A stretch of DNA of 63,481 bases, counting the filler, from Globobulimina sp. (Eukaryota): the NCBI GenBank assembly GCA_003354225.1. It is 36 parts of 36 records of this genome, joined end to end, with 100 filler letters (N's around TTAATTAATTAA, not from the genome) between each part and the next. Parts side by side here need not be neighbours in the genome. Positions count along the whole stretch, not along the records: positions 58,288 to 59,952 come from PIVH01013419.1; 35 more parts are not named here. One strand, given 5' to 3'. Under the pieces are notes generated by a model, which saw only the letters and a program-made list of their open reading frames with translations, ran no database searches and was not told where the DNA came from. Positions 14,326 to 59,952 of this stretch are shown here, piece after piece. Both the position numbers and the translations under genes were made by a program. Within the stretch, counting starts at the first letter, position 1. Each line of letters opens with the position of its first letter.

Positions 14326-15803
14326 TCAGCCGGGGTCATAATCCGGCTCCATGCTCACCGATTGCTTAAACATCCCGGTGAGGGAATTGATTTGGCTAAA
14401 CGTAACCCCATAGGGGAAACGGAATAGTTTGTATTTTGCATATTGTGTTGAATTGAAGTTTATGATAATTTGATTAGAATTAAGCGGATGAGATCTACCT
14501 ACATCTGCCAGAACATCTGCTACAGCATTAAAGGGTTGTTGTATTGGCTTTGTGTGGGATTTAACTTTCCATAGTATGGCATTAATAGATTTGATGTAGG
14601 ACTGTGTTTGTATGAACAGCTCTGAATTCGTCATTTTGGTGATATTCCTGGGTGTGGTGATTAAAGGCATATAATTACACAGTGAGTCAGTAAAGATGAG
14701 GGTGCGTCTATTTTCTGTGCTGATTTTAAGGTGTTTTATTAGATAATTTGATTTAAGTATTGCATAGGATTCACCAAAGTGGTTGGATTGTGGACCGATC
14801 GGTTGGGCGAAACAATGAATTTTATTGTGGTTTTTAATGAATATTCCAATTCCCGTGAGGTTGGTGTTGGGATCATGGGAGGAATCAGTTGCGATTATCA
14901 GATCTGAATCCCTTATTTTATACTTATAATTATGCCAATCAATGATGGTGTCATTACGGATATGGAATATCAGGGAGTTGTTTGGGACGATATTGTATTT
15001 TCTGCGCGTGCCAGGGATTGTGGTTTTGGAGCTGTTTATATTGTAGACATGGTAGAGCCACCTATGGATTTGGGAGATGAGGTTACGGGATAATGTGTTT
15101 TTATTTGTGTTTATATTTATGGTGTTGTGGTGATAGATGAATTGGTTAGTATTAACATCATAGTAATTGGCGCCGCAAATGACATTCCAGAATTGGGACT
15201 TATTTATGTTGACATTGGTGCAAAGTTCGATGAGTCTTTGCATATATATTTGGTTATGTATTCGGTCAATGCTCGCTCCACTTTTGGCGAAGGTGAGATT
15301 GGCATAATTCCAATATTCGTGTCGTAAAGTGTTTAGGATGGGGCATAATACTGCTAAATGTATTTCAATTGGTTTGGCAGTTTGGGCACCACACAAGTTG
15401 CAGTAATTTGTTTTTTGGTTAAAATTATAGAAAAGTTCTCTATAACAGATTATCATTTGGTCGTTTACATACTCCGCCAGTTCATTATTTTCATATATAT
15501 TCATTGGTCTGTAGTCACTGGTGATGTGGTTTAAGATTCTCAGAGGATGGTAGCGATTCAATTGATTTACAATGTGCGTGTGTTGGTTGGTTACAATAAT
15601 TGGACGTATCTGGAAGGGGTGTTCGACAGTGTCATATGGGTCAACTGTTACGGGTCCATTCGGAGTATGGTGAGTTTGGGGCGGCAGCCATTTATTTTTA
15701 AGTATGATATATTGATTGTATAGTTTATAATGATGGATATGGGGTAATTTGGACCATTTATGCATATGCGAGATGTTGCCACATCTCAAGAGTTTATAAT
15801 AAA
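14326..15803 (-). mobile_element. Non-LTR retrotransposon 3' region: CCHC zinc finger followed by RNase H, ending in DPG
   Basis: CNLC...IEIHLAVLCP zinc finger. RNase H acidic residues in IATDSS, FGESYAI, FTDSL and KVKSH...NAVAD. Strong strand compositional skew, as in the RT contig. Confidence 0.8.
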
Positions 15804-27082: not shown

Positions 27083-28172
27083 TTATTTAGATGTTGGTGA
27101 CTTTGCCATAACATGCGATTGTATATCTTGTGTCAATATGTATGTATACGCAGCATCATTGTAATCGCTTTTAATTGTATTATTATCATTATTCTCCGAA
27201 TTACTACTCTCTAAAAAACATTTCATTTGTTGCCAATATGGATCATTTTGTTTCTCTTTAACATTAAATTCATATTCAATCTCTTTACAATCAACATTCC
27301 GATCACCAGAAGATTCTCTTACTCTCAAATAACAAATATCATGATACGGATTACTTAAATTCATTGCAATTCCATCGCCCCACAAATCAATATAACTCTC
27401 ATATTGCTTTCCATGCAGATGGATGCCATGCGATAATGAGATAACTGCTCCTTTACTGCTCTTCCAATTGGCACAAGTTATAATTTGATTCACAAATCCA
27501 TCCTCAATCTCATGCAACTTCACATCTTCATGCATCATATTCCACCCATTACCAGTTTCGCCGCCAAAATACACAGCATTTGCATGTAAAGTGTCAGTAT
27601 GACATTCGCCACATAAATATCTGGCAATATCAACAAAATGTGTGGCTTGTTCTACTATTGGACCTCCGCTTTGCTTTTGATCAAAAAAGAATTGTTTATT
27701 GATATGTGGATAGGCACACTCATATCTCATATTTAAATGCAAAATGCGTCTATCACCTAAAATCTCTCTCATTTTTTCTATAGCTGTGAGGTATCGAAAC
27801 ATATAACTAACACATATTATGGCATTACGATCAGGAAAGCGTTTTGATTTTATCTGTAGGTGTCAAGCATCACTGCTTTAATTGTTCACTTTTACTGTGT
27901 ACTTTAGTGATTTCCGAGTATATACTCACAAAAAGTTAAGAACCACCACAATGACAGCAATCTTACAAAATTAATTGTGCGCTTCTTAACTTTTTGATGA
28001 AATACATGTACACTGATTTAACACAGTAAAAATAAACAAATCTATCTATTTAACCTTAGTTTGTGCATCATTCAATTCGATTGCATATCTGATGAAATCT
28101 TGTGGGTCATCCATTGACAAAGGTTTTTCAACCAAGATATCATATCCTTTTTGAATGCATTTTAATTCCATG
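27083..28172 (-). CDS. Gfo/Idh/MocA family oxidoreductase, 5'-partial, 1 intron
   Basis: ILVEKPLS in the upstream exon, then SYMFRY and SGGPIVEQATHFVD. Intron 27854-28054 (GTTAAA...TACAG) restores the frame. Confidence 0.85.
27890..28031. mobile_element. Degenerate inverted-repeat (hairpin) element inside the intron
   Basis: Nested complementary pairs TTTTACTGTGT/ACACAGTAAAA, CAAAAAGTTAAGAA/TTCTTAACTTTTTG and CACAAT/ATTGTG. Confidence 0.65.
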
Positions 28173-37639: not shown

Positions 37640-38720
37640 ATGTCAGGTGGCCATGACTTTCCAACCAAATGTGAATTAAAATGTACAGGATGTGCGTTCA
37701 TACTCTCCCAAATATTACTCGGTGTTGCATGGTTAATGCATTCAATTGATTACAATGCGTACGACGTAGAAAACGAAGAACAAGTTGTTGAACTTCATGA
37801 AATTTTATCATCAACAAATCATAGAACAGAAATTGAAATCGCATGTGCCTGTGTTTGGATTTCGTTTCCATTTTTATTAATATCCTTATTTGGTATAAAA
37901 AAATTTGCATCTTCTGTATTTTATCAAACTCCCGCTGAAATGGTCATATATATGGCCGAAAAAGCATACATTATATATATTACCGCTACAACCATAATGT
38001 TGCCCGCTTTAAGTCTTGTACAAGTATCATATGAATGGTCATTCCATGAATATACTGCGGAACCGGATGTTATTGCCACTGGATATTATATCCAATTATA
38101 TGCTTTGACACTTGAATTAGAGTTAATTGATTGTATTGCCATCGCGGATGCTACCTTTATGATTTCAATGTCACTTTTACCACGATTTATTTTATTAGGT
38201 ATTGTATATATACACAATTAACACATATATCTATATAATATATGTAGGTTCATCAGCGGCGGGCAATCCCAAATTTAAACAGTTTCGAACTATCCTCCAA
38301 CCCGCTTGCTGCACGGAGAGGAGCGTAATGTCCAAATGTTTCTGTGAAGTATTTACAGTGTGTTTGACCTCAACATTATTCATTATATTTTGTTTAGTAT
38401 TATTTGAGTTTGCAGCATCTGGATTTTTTTCACCGGTCGGCTATGCAAAATTTTTGGTCGGTTGGTCATTTTTATTAAAAATGTTAATAGGCGTTAGATT
38501 TCTTTCCATTGCATACAGTGACAAATATGGAAAATTAAAGGAAGTTTTTGGTGAATCACAGCAAGATATACAAGCAATATTAGGTGGACAACGTAATAAT
38601 TATCAAATGGGCACTGTCAATCTTGAACCACAAACATCTGCCAATGCACATCTTCAAGCCGGAACAAATGAGAATGAGAATGACAATGATAACGAGAATG
38701 AGGAGGATGCTCAATTATAA
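37640..38720 (+). CDS. Hypothetical multi-pass membrane protein (about 6 TM), 1 intron
   Basis: Start MSGGHDFPTKC. Intron 38199-38247 restores the frame. Acidic C-terminal tail. Confidence 0.7.
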
Positions 38721-44167: not shown

Positions 44168-44957
44168 CATATCCACCAGCTCCCCACGACCAAACACCAT
44201 AATTTTCATCAATTGCTAAGGTATGATAATATCCACAAGATATATCCTTAAATTTTATTTTTGTTTGAATTTCTTGAATATTTGGGGATGATTTAATATC
44301 TTTTCCTAATCCTAAACCACCAAAACCATAATCATTACCAGCAACATATATTTTACCATTTGTACTTAAAAATGTTGTATATCGCCCTGCTGTGGCTACT
44401 TTTTGAATCGATAATGATGTTTTAATTGGTGTCCATTTATTATTATTTCTTGTATTTGTTTTTATACCAAATTGATTATCATTATTCCATCCGACAGCAT
44501 ATAATTTATTCTCATTTGAAATACAAAATGAATGTCTTGATCCGTTTGGTGCTGCAAATATATTTTTAATTTTCATATCTTTTGTCTGATGCCATATATT
44601 AATATTATTATAATGCCCAACACCTAATACACCCTCTTCGTTATACCCACAACATTCATATGTTTCATCATCAAATAAAATGTATGCTGCTACACCACCA
44701 TAATCACCACAGCTAACAATATTTTTTATTTCTTTTTTAAATGTTTTTATTTTTGTTATTTGTTTAATATCTTCGTTTCCTCCATTACCTTGTTGTCCAT
44801 ATTCGTTGCTACCAATAGAATATAATAGCAATGAAATATAATAATGGAAGGCATGAATGATACTAATAATATCAGTATGGATGTATGGAGTGCTACAGTT
44901 TCTAACATATCCACTTACTAATAATTGTGATCGTCTTTTCCTGACAGCATGGTTCAT
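44168..44957 (-). CDS. RCC1-repeat protein, 3'-partial
   Basis: GSNEYGQQG, GYNEEGVLG, GWNNDNQFG and ISCGYYHTLA. Confidence 0.9.
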
Positions 44958-45249
44958 TTTTTCGTTAAAGATAGTAAAATTCTTAATTCAAAAATATTTC
45001 ACCAAAAAACTGCCCAAAGAAGAATTTCCCGGTATTTTTTCCCGTACATGTACAAACTGCACAATCCGTCTAAATCTGTGTATACTGAACTCTGAAAAAA
45101 AACAAAGCCGAAACGTTCTCAGATTTACAAAACAGAGCAATCTGATTATGATAGCTGTTTTGAAAAAAGTAACCTTGGGCTTTTTCAAAGTAATTAACAA
45201 AGAAACGCAAATGAAGAATTTCAGATTTGACAAATTCTCCATTTTTTCA

Positions 45250-45832
45250 GGTATCCCTTCCCCGTCAGAAAGATGGGTGGTTTTAAAACTTGCTTTCTAT
45301 TGGAAATTGACAAAAAATGACCCAATTTCCTACATGCATATATGGAGCAGTTTGCCAAACATACTCAATTACACATTATATAAACAGTACCATGACCTCA
45401 AAGCCAAATGGCTCCCAGACAAAATCCAATTAATTGAAGGCGCCTCCACCAATATTGACATATTTGAAATCGTTGCTGGTTGCGGGCCCCTCAGAATCGC
45501 GCCCGATCATTGTAAAAAACCAACATATAAAAATAGTAAATTCAAAGCCCGCATGATTCCGCTCTACCGAGAACTATTCTATTTTTACAATCAAAAACGT
45601 AATTTCTGCAAACTCTGTACCAGAGCCACAACCATCCCAATTGAGACCCACCTTTGCATCCAATGTCCGGTTCTGAGCAACCTTCGCTATGTTTATTGGA
45701 ATCATGCGCGTGCAGGGTTTGCCAGATTAGGCTCCAAAATCAACAAATTCCACAACCAACTCTTCATGCAACGCATAATCGAATTCTGTGAGGATGCATA
45801 TGTACGAGTCGATAATAACATGCTATGGAGAA
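45250..45832 (+). mobile_element. Truncated copy of the same non-LTR family as 14326-15803 (zinc-finger region)
   Basis: Shared blocks W..LP.I..Y.LY.QY..LK.KWLP, YRELFY..NQK.N.C.LC and PIE.HL...CP.L..LR..YWN.A. Confidence 0.8.
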
Positions 45833-49362: not shown

Positions 49363-49832
49363 NNNNNNNNNNNNNNNNNNNNNNNNNNNNNNNNNNNNNN
49401 NNNNNNTTAATTAATTAANNNNNNNNNNNNNNNNNNNNNNNNNNNNNNNNNNNNNNNNNNNNTGACGAATTTTAAAATTTTCTTTTTTTTTTGATTCTAT
49501 TTTTTTATTTTTCTGCTCTTTCTGTTGTTGATTATTTGTTGTTGTACGTTATTCATTTATCAATCTATCCAATTTCAGTTTCTTTCTTCTACAACAGTAC
49601 AACCGGTGCAGTGACATTCTAAACATGATTTACTATGATTATCGATGAGAATGTGAATATCACACTATTGGGTGCATGATATGAATCGTTTGTTATTACA
49701 GCTGTAAATAATAATGGTTTTTATAAACGTGTTAAGCAGCTGCAGTCCAGAAAAATCTCAATTTAATTTAACTCTTGACTGCCACTACCAATTGCACGCA
49801 ACCTTAGAACATTCCAATTACACGCAACGCAA

Positions 49833-51096
49833 ATGAAATTCCTATCATTAATCGCATTTGTATCTGTATTAAAAATGAGTGAGGTTGAAAGCGCAGCAGT
49901 AGCAGTAGCAGTGCCATTGCTTGGTCAAGCAATTAAAGCCGGGACTACTGTACTCACAAAACAAATGGAGATAGACGCAGTATATCAATTGCAAAAAATG
50001 CAAAACCAAATTGATGACCAATTAAATTTAATGAAAAATAAAGTTGGAGCGAGTCACATCCAAACATTAGTATCAATTGAGAATAAATCTGGTTACAGAT
50101 TAGAATTAGTGAAATCAGTGTGTGTGGAACATGGACAATTTGCGCATTGGTGTCCTCAAAGAACAATTGATCCGGGACAAGCATCAATATTTACCACCCA
50201 AAATGCAATGGGTACGACGACAACAATGACGTTAAGTCATGTAGGATCTGTTATTTATCGTGTAATTGACCTCAAGACATTTGAAAAAAAGTGTATGTTC
50301 TCTATACTTTACTAATGTACAATATTAATTTTGACATTTTTGTGAACAACCAGTTGACATTGAGTTTACATGGGTAGCGAAAATACCACGAAAAGCGGCA
50401 GCGTACCTTGGCACAGCTGGGGAATACCGCATCAGAGCAGAAGTTTTGCCCGGAGATAACGATGATAAGTATGATATATGTAAGTATGATAAATATAAAT
50501 ATGATGCTGTGGCATTAGATGGATATTCGTTGCTATGTTATCCTGCTGAACATGGATGTTGCACCAACAGAGAATGGTATCAAGATTTTGATGAAGGCAC
50601 AAGGAAACGATTTGTTGTATCTGGTTGTCATGGACAAGGTAAACAGCCAAGATTCAATTTCGAATTTGTTTCTGAAACAATTGAGCCAGTCGCAGCAGCA
50701 GCAGCAGGTCAAGGAAGAAGACTGCAGTTGCCAGATGGATGGGTAGCAGATGGAGCAGCCGGTGGAGCAGCCGGTGCAGCAGGAGCAGCAGGTGAATCAA
50801 GCAGCAGCAGGTGGAGCATGGCAAAACTGAACAGATTTCTAGAAGACTTACCAGATCAAGCAGGTGAAACTGGTGAATCAAGCAGTTCGTACAGATTGGG
50901 AGCGGCCGGCGGAGCAGCAGGTGATCATGAATCAATCAGATGGATCCCATTCCCGGTGGAGAATATGAACAGATTGATACAAATGGGATTTGACTCAGAA
51001 CAGGCAGAGGAGGCATTGTATGCAAATGAAGGTGATGTTGGAGCAGCAGCAGATTATTTATTGGAGCAGCATGAGAAATTCATGAGAGATTCATGA
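49833..51096 (+). CDS. Secreted protein: actinoporin/aegerolysin-like beta-sandwich, Gly/Ala linker and C-terminal UBA domain; 1 intron
   Basis: Signal peptide. VSIENKSGY.L...G....P..I.PG...VGSVIY. Intron 50293-50353 joins the ORFs in frame. UBA sequence LIQMGFDSEQAEEALYANEGDVGAAADYLL. Confidence 0.65.
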
Positions 51097-56239: not shown

Positions 56240-56522
56240 AGATTTTATTTTGATATTGTTCCATTCAACATCGCGTGCAATTTTCTGTTTGTTTTTTATT
56301 TGGAATGCATTTTTTATTTTGTTTCAACGATATTCCACTTATAACTTTGTTGGTTTTGGAGCGGCCTACACAAGTTAATTAGTCACTACTCAACTAGTCA
56401 ATACATAGTTATGTACTTTTTANNNNNNNNNNNNNNNNNNNNNNNNNNNNNNNNNNNNNNNNNNNNTTAATTAATTAANNNNNNNNNNNNNNNNNNNNNN
56501 NNNNNNNNNNNNNNNNNNNNNN

Positions 56523-56676
56523 TTTTATCAGGGTGATAATATTCATAAACACCATACTGTTCTTCAATTTCCTGGCGGGTGCTGGTGATTACGATATCTG
56601 CAACGCCTAGGGTTTCTTCTTCGGCTTCAATCCGTCGCGATATGTTATAGCGCTTTTCGATTTCACTGAGTTTCAA
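56523..56676 (-). CDS. Bacterial-type sucrose-phosphate synthase (GT4), internal fragment
   Basis: IEKRYNISRRIEAEEETLGVADIVITSTRQEIEEQY is a conserved SPS block. Confidence 0.8.
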
Positions 56677-58187: not shown

Positions 58188-58301
58188 NNNNNNNNNNNNN
58201 NNNNNNNNNNNNNNNNNNNNNNNNNNNNNNNTTAATTAATTAANNNNNNNNNNNNNNNNNNNNNNNNNNNNNNNNNNNNNNNNNNNNATTTGTATTACAC
58301 A

Positions 58302-58725
58302 ATAGAAAGTCATATGCATATGTATGTATATTATCCATATACATGTGTTCCACATATAGCTGCAGCGAACAAGTTAACTGTCCTACATGCTAGAAAGCCA
58401 TATGCATATGTCTATTATCTATGTACATATGTGTTCCATTAAATATTTCCACTTGGAATAAGCAAACATGTATATACTAACGCTTTTAACATGGCTACAG
58501 TAAGCAGGTTATCTGTGTTACATAATAGAAAGTTATATGGATATGTCTATTATCTATGTATGTACATATTCCATTAAATAATTCCCATATTTGTCTCCTG
58601 GAATAACAAACTTGTATTACACATAACATAGCTTGCAGTAAACAAGCTAGCTGTACTCTACATAATAGAAAGTCATGCACATATATATGTCTATTATCTA
58701 TGTACATATGTGTTCCATTAAATAA
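58302..58725. repeat. Degenerate tandem repeat (about 90-140-bp spacing, about 4 copies)
   Basis: Core TAGAAAG.CATATG.ATATGTCTATTATCTATGTACATATGTGTTCCATTAAATA near 58302, 58391, 58526 and 58666. Confidence 0.85.
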
Positions 58726-59417
58726 CCCAAATTGGAGTGCTTTTGTCCCTGTTCCAGATTAACATTTGATCATTATTATTATTTGCATTTTAAAACCTCT
58801 GGATTATAAACATAGTTTGTATATAGTATCACATTTAACATGGTCCCGCTAGTGTAGTGGGATTGTCGCAGTATACGCACATTAGGTGTACTACGTAATA
58901 GAAAACCATAGTCACAACTCTATTACCCATATTTAATAATTGCCATATTTAATAATGCGCGCGTAGTTGCCATATTTAATAATTGATATATTTCTCCCTA
59001 ACCCAGCATGAAGTGTTTTTGCCCCTATTGCAAATTAGCTTTTGAGAAACATGATTTTCTTCAACATCTGAAAGAAATCCACCAGACAAAGAGGTGCGGA
59101 AGGTGTGGATTGTCAATTGTCAACTTGCAATAATATAAATGTTTTGAAGAGTTATGTAAAAGCCTTATCAATGTTATCACTCGTTAGTCAGATAGTAGAT
59201 TAAGTTTGACTTTTAGAAAGACCGTCAGAGACAAATCATAAAAAAATGCAGTGCAAATCAGGTCAATCCGAGAAGTAGTTAATCTGTAAAAGCCTTATCA
59301 GTGTTATCAGATGACTATCAACAAAGCAAATGGGAACTTTTGTCACTAGTAGTGCTACAATTGATTGGTATACTTTTAAAGAAATAATAACATCTTTCAT
59401 TATAACAAATAAAATAA

Positions 59418-59952
59418 TCACATTCTAACATTTAACAGTGAAGGATAATTCTCATGTATGTAATCTGAAACGGAATCAAAGGTAAGACCACAGTCCCGAT
59501 TCATAAATGGATATATTTCTTTCAAAAGAGTTGGATCGTCTTTCAACTCTCTGGGATAGTCACAGATGGCGCATTTGAAATACCCCATTTTGGGGCAAAA
59601 ACGTCGAAGTCCTTTTTTTGTTTGTTGGTATGTTCTCATGGCATGATCTTGATCACTTCTGATCCCTCTGACTATGGGTCTTCTTTCTGTCTCGTCTTCA
59701 ATGTCGAAAACTGTGGAGAGATAATTTCCAAGTTTTAGAACTTCCAAGTTTTCGAATGTGTGTGAAATACCTGAAATATACACTATTAGACTTTCACGAT
59801 AAAAAATCGTTATCTAACCTTTGCATGCGATCTTGGCCGTTCCTTTTGTGCTGGCGATCTGATACGTTTTTGAGGCTAGACCAACAAATACCTCCCCCTC
59901 TTGTTCCAACTTCAGTAGCAATGGTTTGAGACTGTCGGAATCTTTAGTAACA
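59418..59952 (-). mobile_element. Protein-primed family B DNA polymerase C-terminus (Polinton/Maverick/adintovirus-like), with a 48-nt intron
   Basis: Spliced translation DSLKPLLLKLEQEGEVFVGLASKTYQI...KIACK|GI...YLSTVF...VRGIRS...MRTYQQTKKGLRRFCPK. Intron 59771-59818 (GTTAGA...TTTCAG) holds an in-frame stop. Confidence 0.7.

Follow-up and report, generated by a model that had tools for sequence, protein, structure and literature searches.

A C-terminal fragment of a protein-primed-type DNA polymerase B with a predicted 48-nt intron in a Globobulimina sp. assembly, probably from a Polinton/Maverick-type element

Introduction

Polinton/Maverick-type elements are self-synthesising elements whose replicase belongs to the protein-primed family B DNA polymerases (pPolB). 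Here we describe the 3′ end of such a polymerase gene in a stretch of DNA of 63,481 nucleotides (nt) from assembly GCA_003354225.1 of Globobulimina sp.; the whole stretch that was analysed is referred to below as the window. The gene end, which is cut by the edge of a short contig (PIVH01013419.1), is probably the C-terminal piece of a pPolB with one host-style intron, most likely from the replicase of a Polinton/Maverick-type element or from a remnant of such an element.

The closest described enzymes are those of the pPolB2 class of Polintons surveyed by Jeong et al. 2023 (PMC10748475). That survey is based on open reading frames (ORFs) of at least 900 aa with integrase linkage; it names the motifs Exo I-III and Pol A-C, and it records pPolB2 from two phyla of unicellular eukaryotes and five of invertebrates, seven in all. 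A VSR insertion marks one subgroup of this integrase-linked class, and the hosts named for it are the marine nematode Trissonchulus latispiculum and the molluscs Batillaria and Elysia. Nematode Mavericks are a second point of comparison: Widen et al. (preprint 10.1101/2022.07.12.499685) call the core genes of one such element intronless, polymerase included, and place introns in its cargo genes only. An explicit report of spliceosomal introns in Polinton or adintovirus polymerase genes was not found among the papers and passages searched, which is not proof that there is none. Introns in some Polinton genes are said to have been noted by Kapitonov and Jurka in 2006.

The polymerase fragment and its relatives

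The window consists of 36 unrelated contigs, each of about 1,665 nt, with 35 spacers of the form N44-TTAATTAATTAA-N44 between them, so that neighbourhood across the spacers is meaningless. According to the spacer map, the contig that carries the polymerase fragment (1,665 nt) occupies positions 58288..59952. Because this piece is a short spacer-joined contig, the 5′ end of the fragment at 59952 is a contig edge only. A loose end at 59948 among the contigs of run X1 reads FDQRYSDIFV by eye, and a related public metagenome contig (L001, introduced below) reads FDRRYSDIFV at the same place; this match in frame indicates that the gene runs past the contig edge.

On the minus strand, 160 codons of the gene are present (44 + 116), arranged around the predicted intron. 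The upstream exon end (59819..59952), which reads VTKDS...GLASKTYQI...IACK plus the first base of a split Gly codon, holds 44 codons at 59951-59820, translated as VTKDSDSLKPLLLKLEQEGEVFVGLASKTYQIASTKGTAKIACK, and then the single base G at 59819. It includes the KxY-type motif SKTY at 59870-59862. A 48-nt phase-1 GT..AG intron (GTTAGA...TTTCAG, with an in-frame TAG) is predicted at 59771..59818. The last exon (59418..59770) supplies the other two bases of the split Gly codon, 116 codons and the stop codon TGA at 59420-59418. Its translation begins with the G of the split codon, continues as ISHTF...VRGIRS...TYQQTKKGLRRFCPK...CAIC...FPRE...YPF...C... and ends at TGA; a stretch further along the same frame, after VRGIRS, reads TYQQTKKGLRRFCPKMGYFKCAICDYPRE. 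This exon is the thumb-side end of the polymerase together with a Cys-containing tail, whose Cys codons lie from 59597 to 59490.

Sixteen relatives were found at E <= 1e-3 when 1.84 billion cluster representatives were searched with HMMER; 8 reached E <= 1e-10 and 3 reached E <= 1e-30. Most of them are C-terminal fragments from contigs of 1-4 kb, and each cluster has a single member. The last exon is 93% identical to P0004, 68% to P0005 and 60% to P0006. Residues 1149-1278 of P0012, a protein of 1,305 aa, align to the fragment with 36% identity (E 2.1e-10), and the upstream exon aligns to residues 1149-1188 of the same protein as well as to P0005 and P0006. P0012 in turn matches the Pfam family PF03175 (DNA_pol_B_2, titled 'DNA polymerase type B, organellar and viral') at E 8.2e-10, with 38.6 bits against a cut-off of 25.8. 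It was the only one of 8 relatives scanned to have a Pfam match, the other 7 all being C-terminal fragments.

A second line of evidence comes from L001, a public metagenome contig of 3,017 nt. Over 643 nt it shows 93.6% identity to the contig in the window, and it carries the gene further upstream as an uninterrupted ORF of 434 codons. The existence of this second copy and of the 16 relatives indicates that the frame in the window is no product of chance. This ORF aligns to residues 764-1188 of P0012 with 34% identity (E 5e-69). By eye, it contains the strings KAMLNTFFG (KLLGNSAFG in P0012), YATDTDS and SKTY, which we take to be motif B, motif C and KxY, as these motifs are named in phi29-type enzymes. 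Motif C reads YATDTDS in both L001 and P0005, YATDTDT in P0006 and ACDTDS in P0012. The K and Y of KxY are aligned, by eye, across the 12 relatives that cover the stretch, and are absent from the computed list of invariant columns. Exo-like and motif A-like strings can likewise be read by eye in P0012 and in P0020, a more distant full-length relative. Weaker support is given by the ESM Atlas, in which P0012 adjoins eukaryotic PF03175 clusters (score 0.95).

The family appears to be thinly represented in the collections scanned. A word-based protein search with P0012 returned only P0012 itself, and one for longer proteins with the L001 ORF returned only P0020. The IMG/VR viral contigs scanned contained no relative, and the prokaryote genome contigs scanned gave a sole match, a 634-nt contig in a bacterial metagenome-assembled genome (L002), through a Vsr-like stretch. 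Matches of the fragment to UBR4 (E 0.08-0.24) and to a Fis-family chain (E 0.47) have chance-level scores and were rejected.

By way of P0012 and L001, the fragment can be read with high confidence as the C-terminal end of a protein-primed-type PolB. The initial annotation of this DNA had proposed such a C-terminal region, and the proposal is supported by the chain of matches from window to P0012 (E 2e-10), from L001 to P0012 (E 5e-69) and from P0012 to PF03175 (E 8e-10). A match to polymerase profiles had been expected of the peptide; the fragment itself has no family match in Pfam even at E <= 10, and it is its full-length relative P0012 that lies over the PF03175 cut-off. Catalytic motifs had been expected upstream, and the 93.6% identical L001 copy has motif B and YATDTDS there. 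Two remarks on the C-terminus did not stand. The first was that KM stands in place of a usual KR. Every row of the family alignment has the K of ..PK, but the position after it is variable (M, V, Q, S, F, W or N) and is R in 0 of 14 relatives, so that this is a feature of the whole family. The second was that an extra CxxC tail of about 45 aa may mark a divergent lineage; the tail (C..C/H, FPRE, YP, C) is common to all 14 aligned relatives, including the PF03175-positive P0012. One Pro does not vary in the alignment, at least 90% of the rows share one Cys, and the Cys/His pattern suggests a small metal-binding module.

The 48-nt intron

As 48 is divisible by three, the segment leaves the reading frame unchanged, and only the TAG blocks read-through. 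In the family alignment of 15 rows, all 13 relatives that span the junction read CK-G-I without the 16 codons, and the junction left by removal, ACK|G|ISHT, is the contiguous ACKGISHT of P0005. The segment thus has GT..AG ends, and its removal restores the conserved frame. L001 keeps the same segment with GT and AG both intact and 3 of 48 nt different; P0004, an ORF called on L001, begins within the translated 48 nt. In addition, one nucleotide of the segment, at 59801, is deleted in a variant contig of run X1; in coding sequence such a deletion would break the frame, and it therefore supports an intron.

A variant genetic code with TAG as a sense codon was considered and rejected. TAG, TAA and TGA each terminate Pfam-positive ORFs in the window, as standard stops of a eukaryote, and TAG ends a Snf7 ORF after the full domain. 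A crude scan of other contigs found candidate GT..AG introns of 48-61 nt that join long ORFs (2487-2544, 38199-38247 and 50293-50353). A DNA form without the intron was not seen among the run-X1 contigs, and runs X2 and X3 of the same sample contributed no contig to the locus.

Taken together, the 48-nt segment behaves as a spliceosomal intron would. The initial annotation had arrived at the same view, and its strand, frame and coordinates, as well as the GT...TTTCAG segment with an in-frame TAG, were all reproduced when the DNA was translated anew; the intron itself agrees with the 13 relatives that are without the segment, the GT..AG ends kept in L001, the indel variant, the use of TAG as a stop and the low dN/dS of the exons (0.12).

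Full-length relatives and the Vsr-like insertion

P0012 and P0020 show what a complete member of this group looks like. P0020 is the more distant of the two (24% identity over 821 columns, E 1e-52). Both proteins have N-terminal C2H2 fingers and Exo and Pol motifs, and in both an insertion that contains the string FEFHGC(F/W)(W/Y)HGC separates Pol motif A from motif B. The P0012 insertion scores E 0.9 against Pfam Vsr. A structural model of it, with a predicted local distance difference test (pLDDT) value of 84-92 over residues 60-140, was compared with known structures in two ways. Foldseek placed E. coli Vsr (1vsr) first, at E 0.16 and probability 0.77. VIA, which is independent of Foldseek, placed 1cw0_A first (Z 5.3, root-mean-square deviation (rmsd) 4.4 A, 90 residues aligned), and this was the sole chain with Z >= 5 among 48,161. 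The scores are modest, but both structure searches rank Vsr first for the modelled insertion. A profile of alignment A6 compared with the PDB was swamped by the C2H2 fingers of P0020 and is uninformative on Vsr.

The prokaryotic match L002 encodes about 100 residues that are 35% identical to the Vsr-like insertion of P0012. It is probably eukaryotic or viral DNA that was binned into a bacterial genome.

Selection and gene copies

Comparison of the window with L001 over 160 whole codons gives 24 differences, distributed 5/5/14 by codon position. The nonsynonymous rate (dN) is 0.021 and the synonymous rate (dS) 0.175, which gives a dN/dS of 0.12. The upstream exon differs at 1 of 132 nt and the last exon at 23 of 348 nt, and neither copy has a stop or frameshift in the last exon. 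A dN/dS of this size indicates that the protein end is under purifying selection, or was until recently, and hence that the gene is functional now or was so recently. Such selection fits an active element family as well as it fits a host-retained gene.

Run X1 also contains a second variant over 59716-59831, with 8 other letters and the 1-nt deletion in 116 nt, at a depth of 8.65 versus 4.93. Since it occurs in the same sample, there must be at least two copies or alleles of the gene.

Downstream flank, neighbouring gene and repeats

Beyond the stop codon, 112 nt (59306..59417, minus strand) are common to the window and L001 and form a probable 3′ untranslated region; the similarity stops near 59305. 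Next to it, a segment at 59155..59310 takes the place of most of a neighbouring gene that is kept in L001. It lies between 25-nt direct repeats at 59155-59179 and 59285-59309, which have the sequence TGTAAAAGCCTTATCA[A/G]TGTTATCA and are 130 nt apart. In run X1, the summed contig depth reaches 204-293 at 59240-59351 as compared with about 11-12 nearby, a 20-fold difference, and several loose ends fall at 59279-59311. The segment is probably a small high-copy mobile element that was inserted where L001 has a zinc-finger gene.

What is left of that gene in the window is a C2H2 zinc-finger remnant of 41 codons at 59008..59133 on the plus strand (MKCFCPYCKLAFEKHDF...), convergent to the polymerase and aligned to L001 2367-2440. 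In L001 the same neighbour is intact, as a 261-codon ORF at 1732-2517 on the minus strand, again convergent to the polymerase. It reaches E 1e-4 against Pfam zf-Di19, under the cut-off, and a word-based search with it for longer proteins returned nothing. This 261-codon ORF is similar to the N-terminal region of P0020, with E 1e-4 over the fingers and 0.04 over the 190 residues after them. The neighbour may thus represent the N-terminal module of such a polymerase, either truncated or encoded separately.

Further along, diverged direct repeats with a spacing of 88-233 nt extend to the contig end (58295..58909). They occur also at L001 2466-3017; the repeat regions of the two copies are 78.7% identical over 558 nt, and the units are 60-89% identical to reference copies. 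Tandem Repeats Finder did not score the repeats at 58295-58909, and no inverted partner for them was found in the window. They probably explain why the assembly ends here in both copies. Satellite DNA is one possible identity for them, the terminal region of an element another.

Origin of the polymerase gene

Four described systems can be set beside this gene. The VSR-bearing pPolB2 enzymes (PMC10748475) resemble P0012 and P0020 in their Exo and Pol motifs, in an insertion between motifs A and B, whose model for P0012 ranks E. coli Vsr first, and in their eukaryotic hosts; P0012 also lies over the PF03175 cut-off. As to differences, the Vsr-like string of the window lineage, as seen in L001, is degenerate and the gene bears an intron, and the integrase linkage required in that survey was seen neither on the window contig nor on L001. 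Nematode Mavericks (preprint 10.1101/2022.07.12.499685) are likewise integrated virus-like elements with a type B polymerase, but the polymerase of the one described there is intronless and the gene described here bears an intron. The phi29-type polymerases (PF03175) have the same order of motif B, YxDTDS and KxY, followed by the C-terminal thumb. In contrast to them, the family is about 1,300 aa long with C2H2 fingers, a Vsr-like insertion and a Cys tail; P0012 has 0 matches among PDB sequences at E <= 1, and the model of P0006 has no fold match in the PDB. Finally, the polymerases of bidnavirus-like and MELD (adintovirus-type) viruses supply the best rows in BFVD for the P0006 model. Eight rows are at E <= 0.01 (3e-4 to 1e-2), and 6 of these are named DNA polymerases, from bidnavirus-like, MELD or densovirus-labelled viruses or a Bacillus phage. 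With TM-scores of about 0.25, an rmsd of 13-17 A and a low-confidence model, these rows are a lead and not a placement.

The Vsr-like insertion, which resembles the published mark of one pPolB2 subgroup, makes a Polinton/Maverick origin the likeliest reading. The fragment would be the end of the palm with its KxY-type motif, the thumb side and the Cys-containing C-terminal tail of a member of a sparse family. Full-length members of this family start with C2H2 fingers, go on to the Exo and Pol motifs and have a Vsr-like nuclease domain inserted after Pol motif A and before motif B, an architecture on record for the pPolB2 class. A 48-nt spliceosomal intron would have been gained in this lineage. 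Unspliced RNA would stop at the TAG after ...ACKG and lose the last 116 residues; as this product is truncated, the full-length enzyme would need the host spliceosome. The gene would then most likely be the replicase of a Polinton/Maverick-type self-synthesising element, or the remnant of one.

Several observations weigh against this reading. With regard to the enzyme, the contig covers only 160 codons, and its edge cuts off the Vsr-like domain as well as the Exo motifs and Pol motifs A and C. The fragment pieces, and the read-through with X at the TAG, gave nothing meaningful in Pfam, PHROGs, PDB sequences or phage records (tblastn), so the polymerase assignment is transitive and not direct. 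The AlphaFold (AF2) model of P0006 is poor (pLDDT 60.6) and finds nothing in the PDB at E <= 0.001 with Foldseek. With regard to the intron, splicing is predicted from DNA. Moreover, the 13 junction-spanning relatives are single-ORF calls, among which a stop-bearing intron would have hidden its bearer; they identify the 16 codons as an insertion that only this lineage has, but do not speak to introns in other lineages.

With regard to the type of element, neither the 1,665-nt contig nor the 3,017-nt L001 shows an integrase, capsid, ATPase, protease or terminal inverted repeat, the contig being 1.7 kb long with flank on one side of the gene only. Nor was an rve integrase, double jelly-roll capsid, penton, packaging ATPase or adenain-like protease found in the 51 ORFs scanned across the window (each of at least 110 codons, out of 60 listed), which lie on unlinked contigs. 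The likeness to pPolB2 rests on the shared insertion and not on a tree, and in L001 the insertion string itself is degenerate (FEFNGTVVHS, as against FEFHGCFWHGC in P0012). The destruction of the neighbouring gene and the entry of a high-copy repeat show that the locus is at least partly decaying.

The alternative that survives best, and that we hold to be distinctly less probable than an element's own replicase, is a solitary pPolB retained and possibly domesticated by the host. Such a gene would go back to an ancient capture from a Polinton-like element; it would since have passed by vertical inheritance, with expression like that of a host gene, and would have left the mobile state behind. 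An intron gained in this lineage only would suit it, as would the dN/dS of 0.12 over 160 codons. The window and L001 copies have the 3′ flank, the neighbour remnant and the repeat array in common, which is what one expects of orthologous or homeologous loci; L001 has kept motifs B, C and KxY despite its degenerate Vsr-like string; an integrase was not found among the window ORFs scanned; and the core genes of a nematode Maverick are called intronless (10.1101/2022.07.12.499685). However, selection and shared flanks are equally expected from two copies of one active element family, and the shared flank may itself belong to the element. There are also at least two variants in one sample, and the flanking context on the contig has no host genes linked to the polymerase.

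A related composite explanation, which we regard as improbable, is that the gene serves no classical Polinton and is either a spliced pPolB retained under selection by an invertebrate or protist host or part of an undescribed, compact pPolB element with a separate, convergent C2H2/N-terminal (terminal-protein-like) module and ends made of arrays of repeats of about 135 nt. It is hinted at by the resemblance of the L001 neighbour to the N-terminus of P0020 and by the ending of both copies in the same repeat array.

Slightly more doubtful still is another carrier of pPolB that was co-assembled with the host: a linear plasmid, for example, or a virus of the bidnavirus-like, MELD or exogenous adintovirus kind. 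The top BFVD rows are polymerases of bidnavirus-like viruses, 'parvoviridae sp.' and MELD viruses, the contig is short and has no linked neighbours, and the source of L001 is a collection of public metagenome contigs. Against these points, the 48-nt GT..AG intron falls within the size range of the candidate host introns, a sample-wide high-copy repeat is inserted beside the gene, and the GC content along the contig (29-41%) is near the window mean of 33%. The IMG/VR viral contigs have no relative, and the BFVD rows have TM-scores of about 0.25 and were obtained with a model of pLDDT 60.6.

Very unlikely is a dead pseudogene in which the 48 nt are a lineage-specific insertion of 16 codons with a stop and not an intron: an insertion of 48 nt would leave the frame intact, and the neighbouring gene has decayed in the window, but the exact GT/AG ends and T-rich acceptor are conserved in L001, the exon dN/dS is 0.12, the last exon is free of stops and frameshifts in two copies that differ at 23 of 348 nt, the 1-nt deletion of the variant is inside the segment with none in the exons, and 434 upstream codons of L001 are uninterrupted.

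Other contigs of the window

None of the other pieces of the window is similar to the contig at 58288-59952 (blastn), and tblastn with three family proteins matches that contig only. Rfam gave 0 matches to the contig at E <= 0.1. Elsewhere, the window contigs carry tubulin, Snf7, ABC-transporter and RCC1 genes and a reverse transcriptase of the long interspersed nuclear element (LINE) type. Matches of a LINE reverse transcriptase in the ESM Atlas point to no single phylum, being recorded under Annelida (one record), under Nucleocytoviricota or without a taxon. The reverse transcriptase (RVT_1, E 7e-37) is on one contig at 24741-26405 (minus strand). Two long ORFs on two further contigs, at 14329-15801 (minus) and 44857-45831 (plus), both have by eye the stretch YRELFY..NQK.N.C.LC and may belong to one retroelement family. 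A few ORFs would be odd for an animal genome, namely a glycosyltransferase-like fragment, read by eye, at 56467-56676 (minus), one with an ox_reductase_C domain at 27086-27862 (minus) and a Nakanori-like protein, under its cut-off, at 49779-50312 (plus). They could be foreign genes or reflect a mixed origin of the contigs.

Significance of an intron-bearing replicase

The kind of element proposed here is already known, and the intron is the one unusual trait of this pPolB tail. As 160 codons without context, the fragment is a pointer to a locus and not yet a result. A conserved, selected, intron-bearing copy of a related polymerase may escape surveys that need long, uninterrupted, integrase-linked ORFs. 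If the intron is spliced, the replicase of a virus-like element would depend on the nuclear RNA processing of its host, which would bear on the site and mode of expression of such elements and on the time that the lineage has spent in a nuclear genome.

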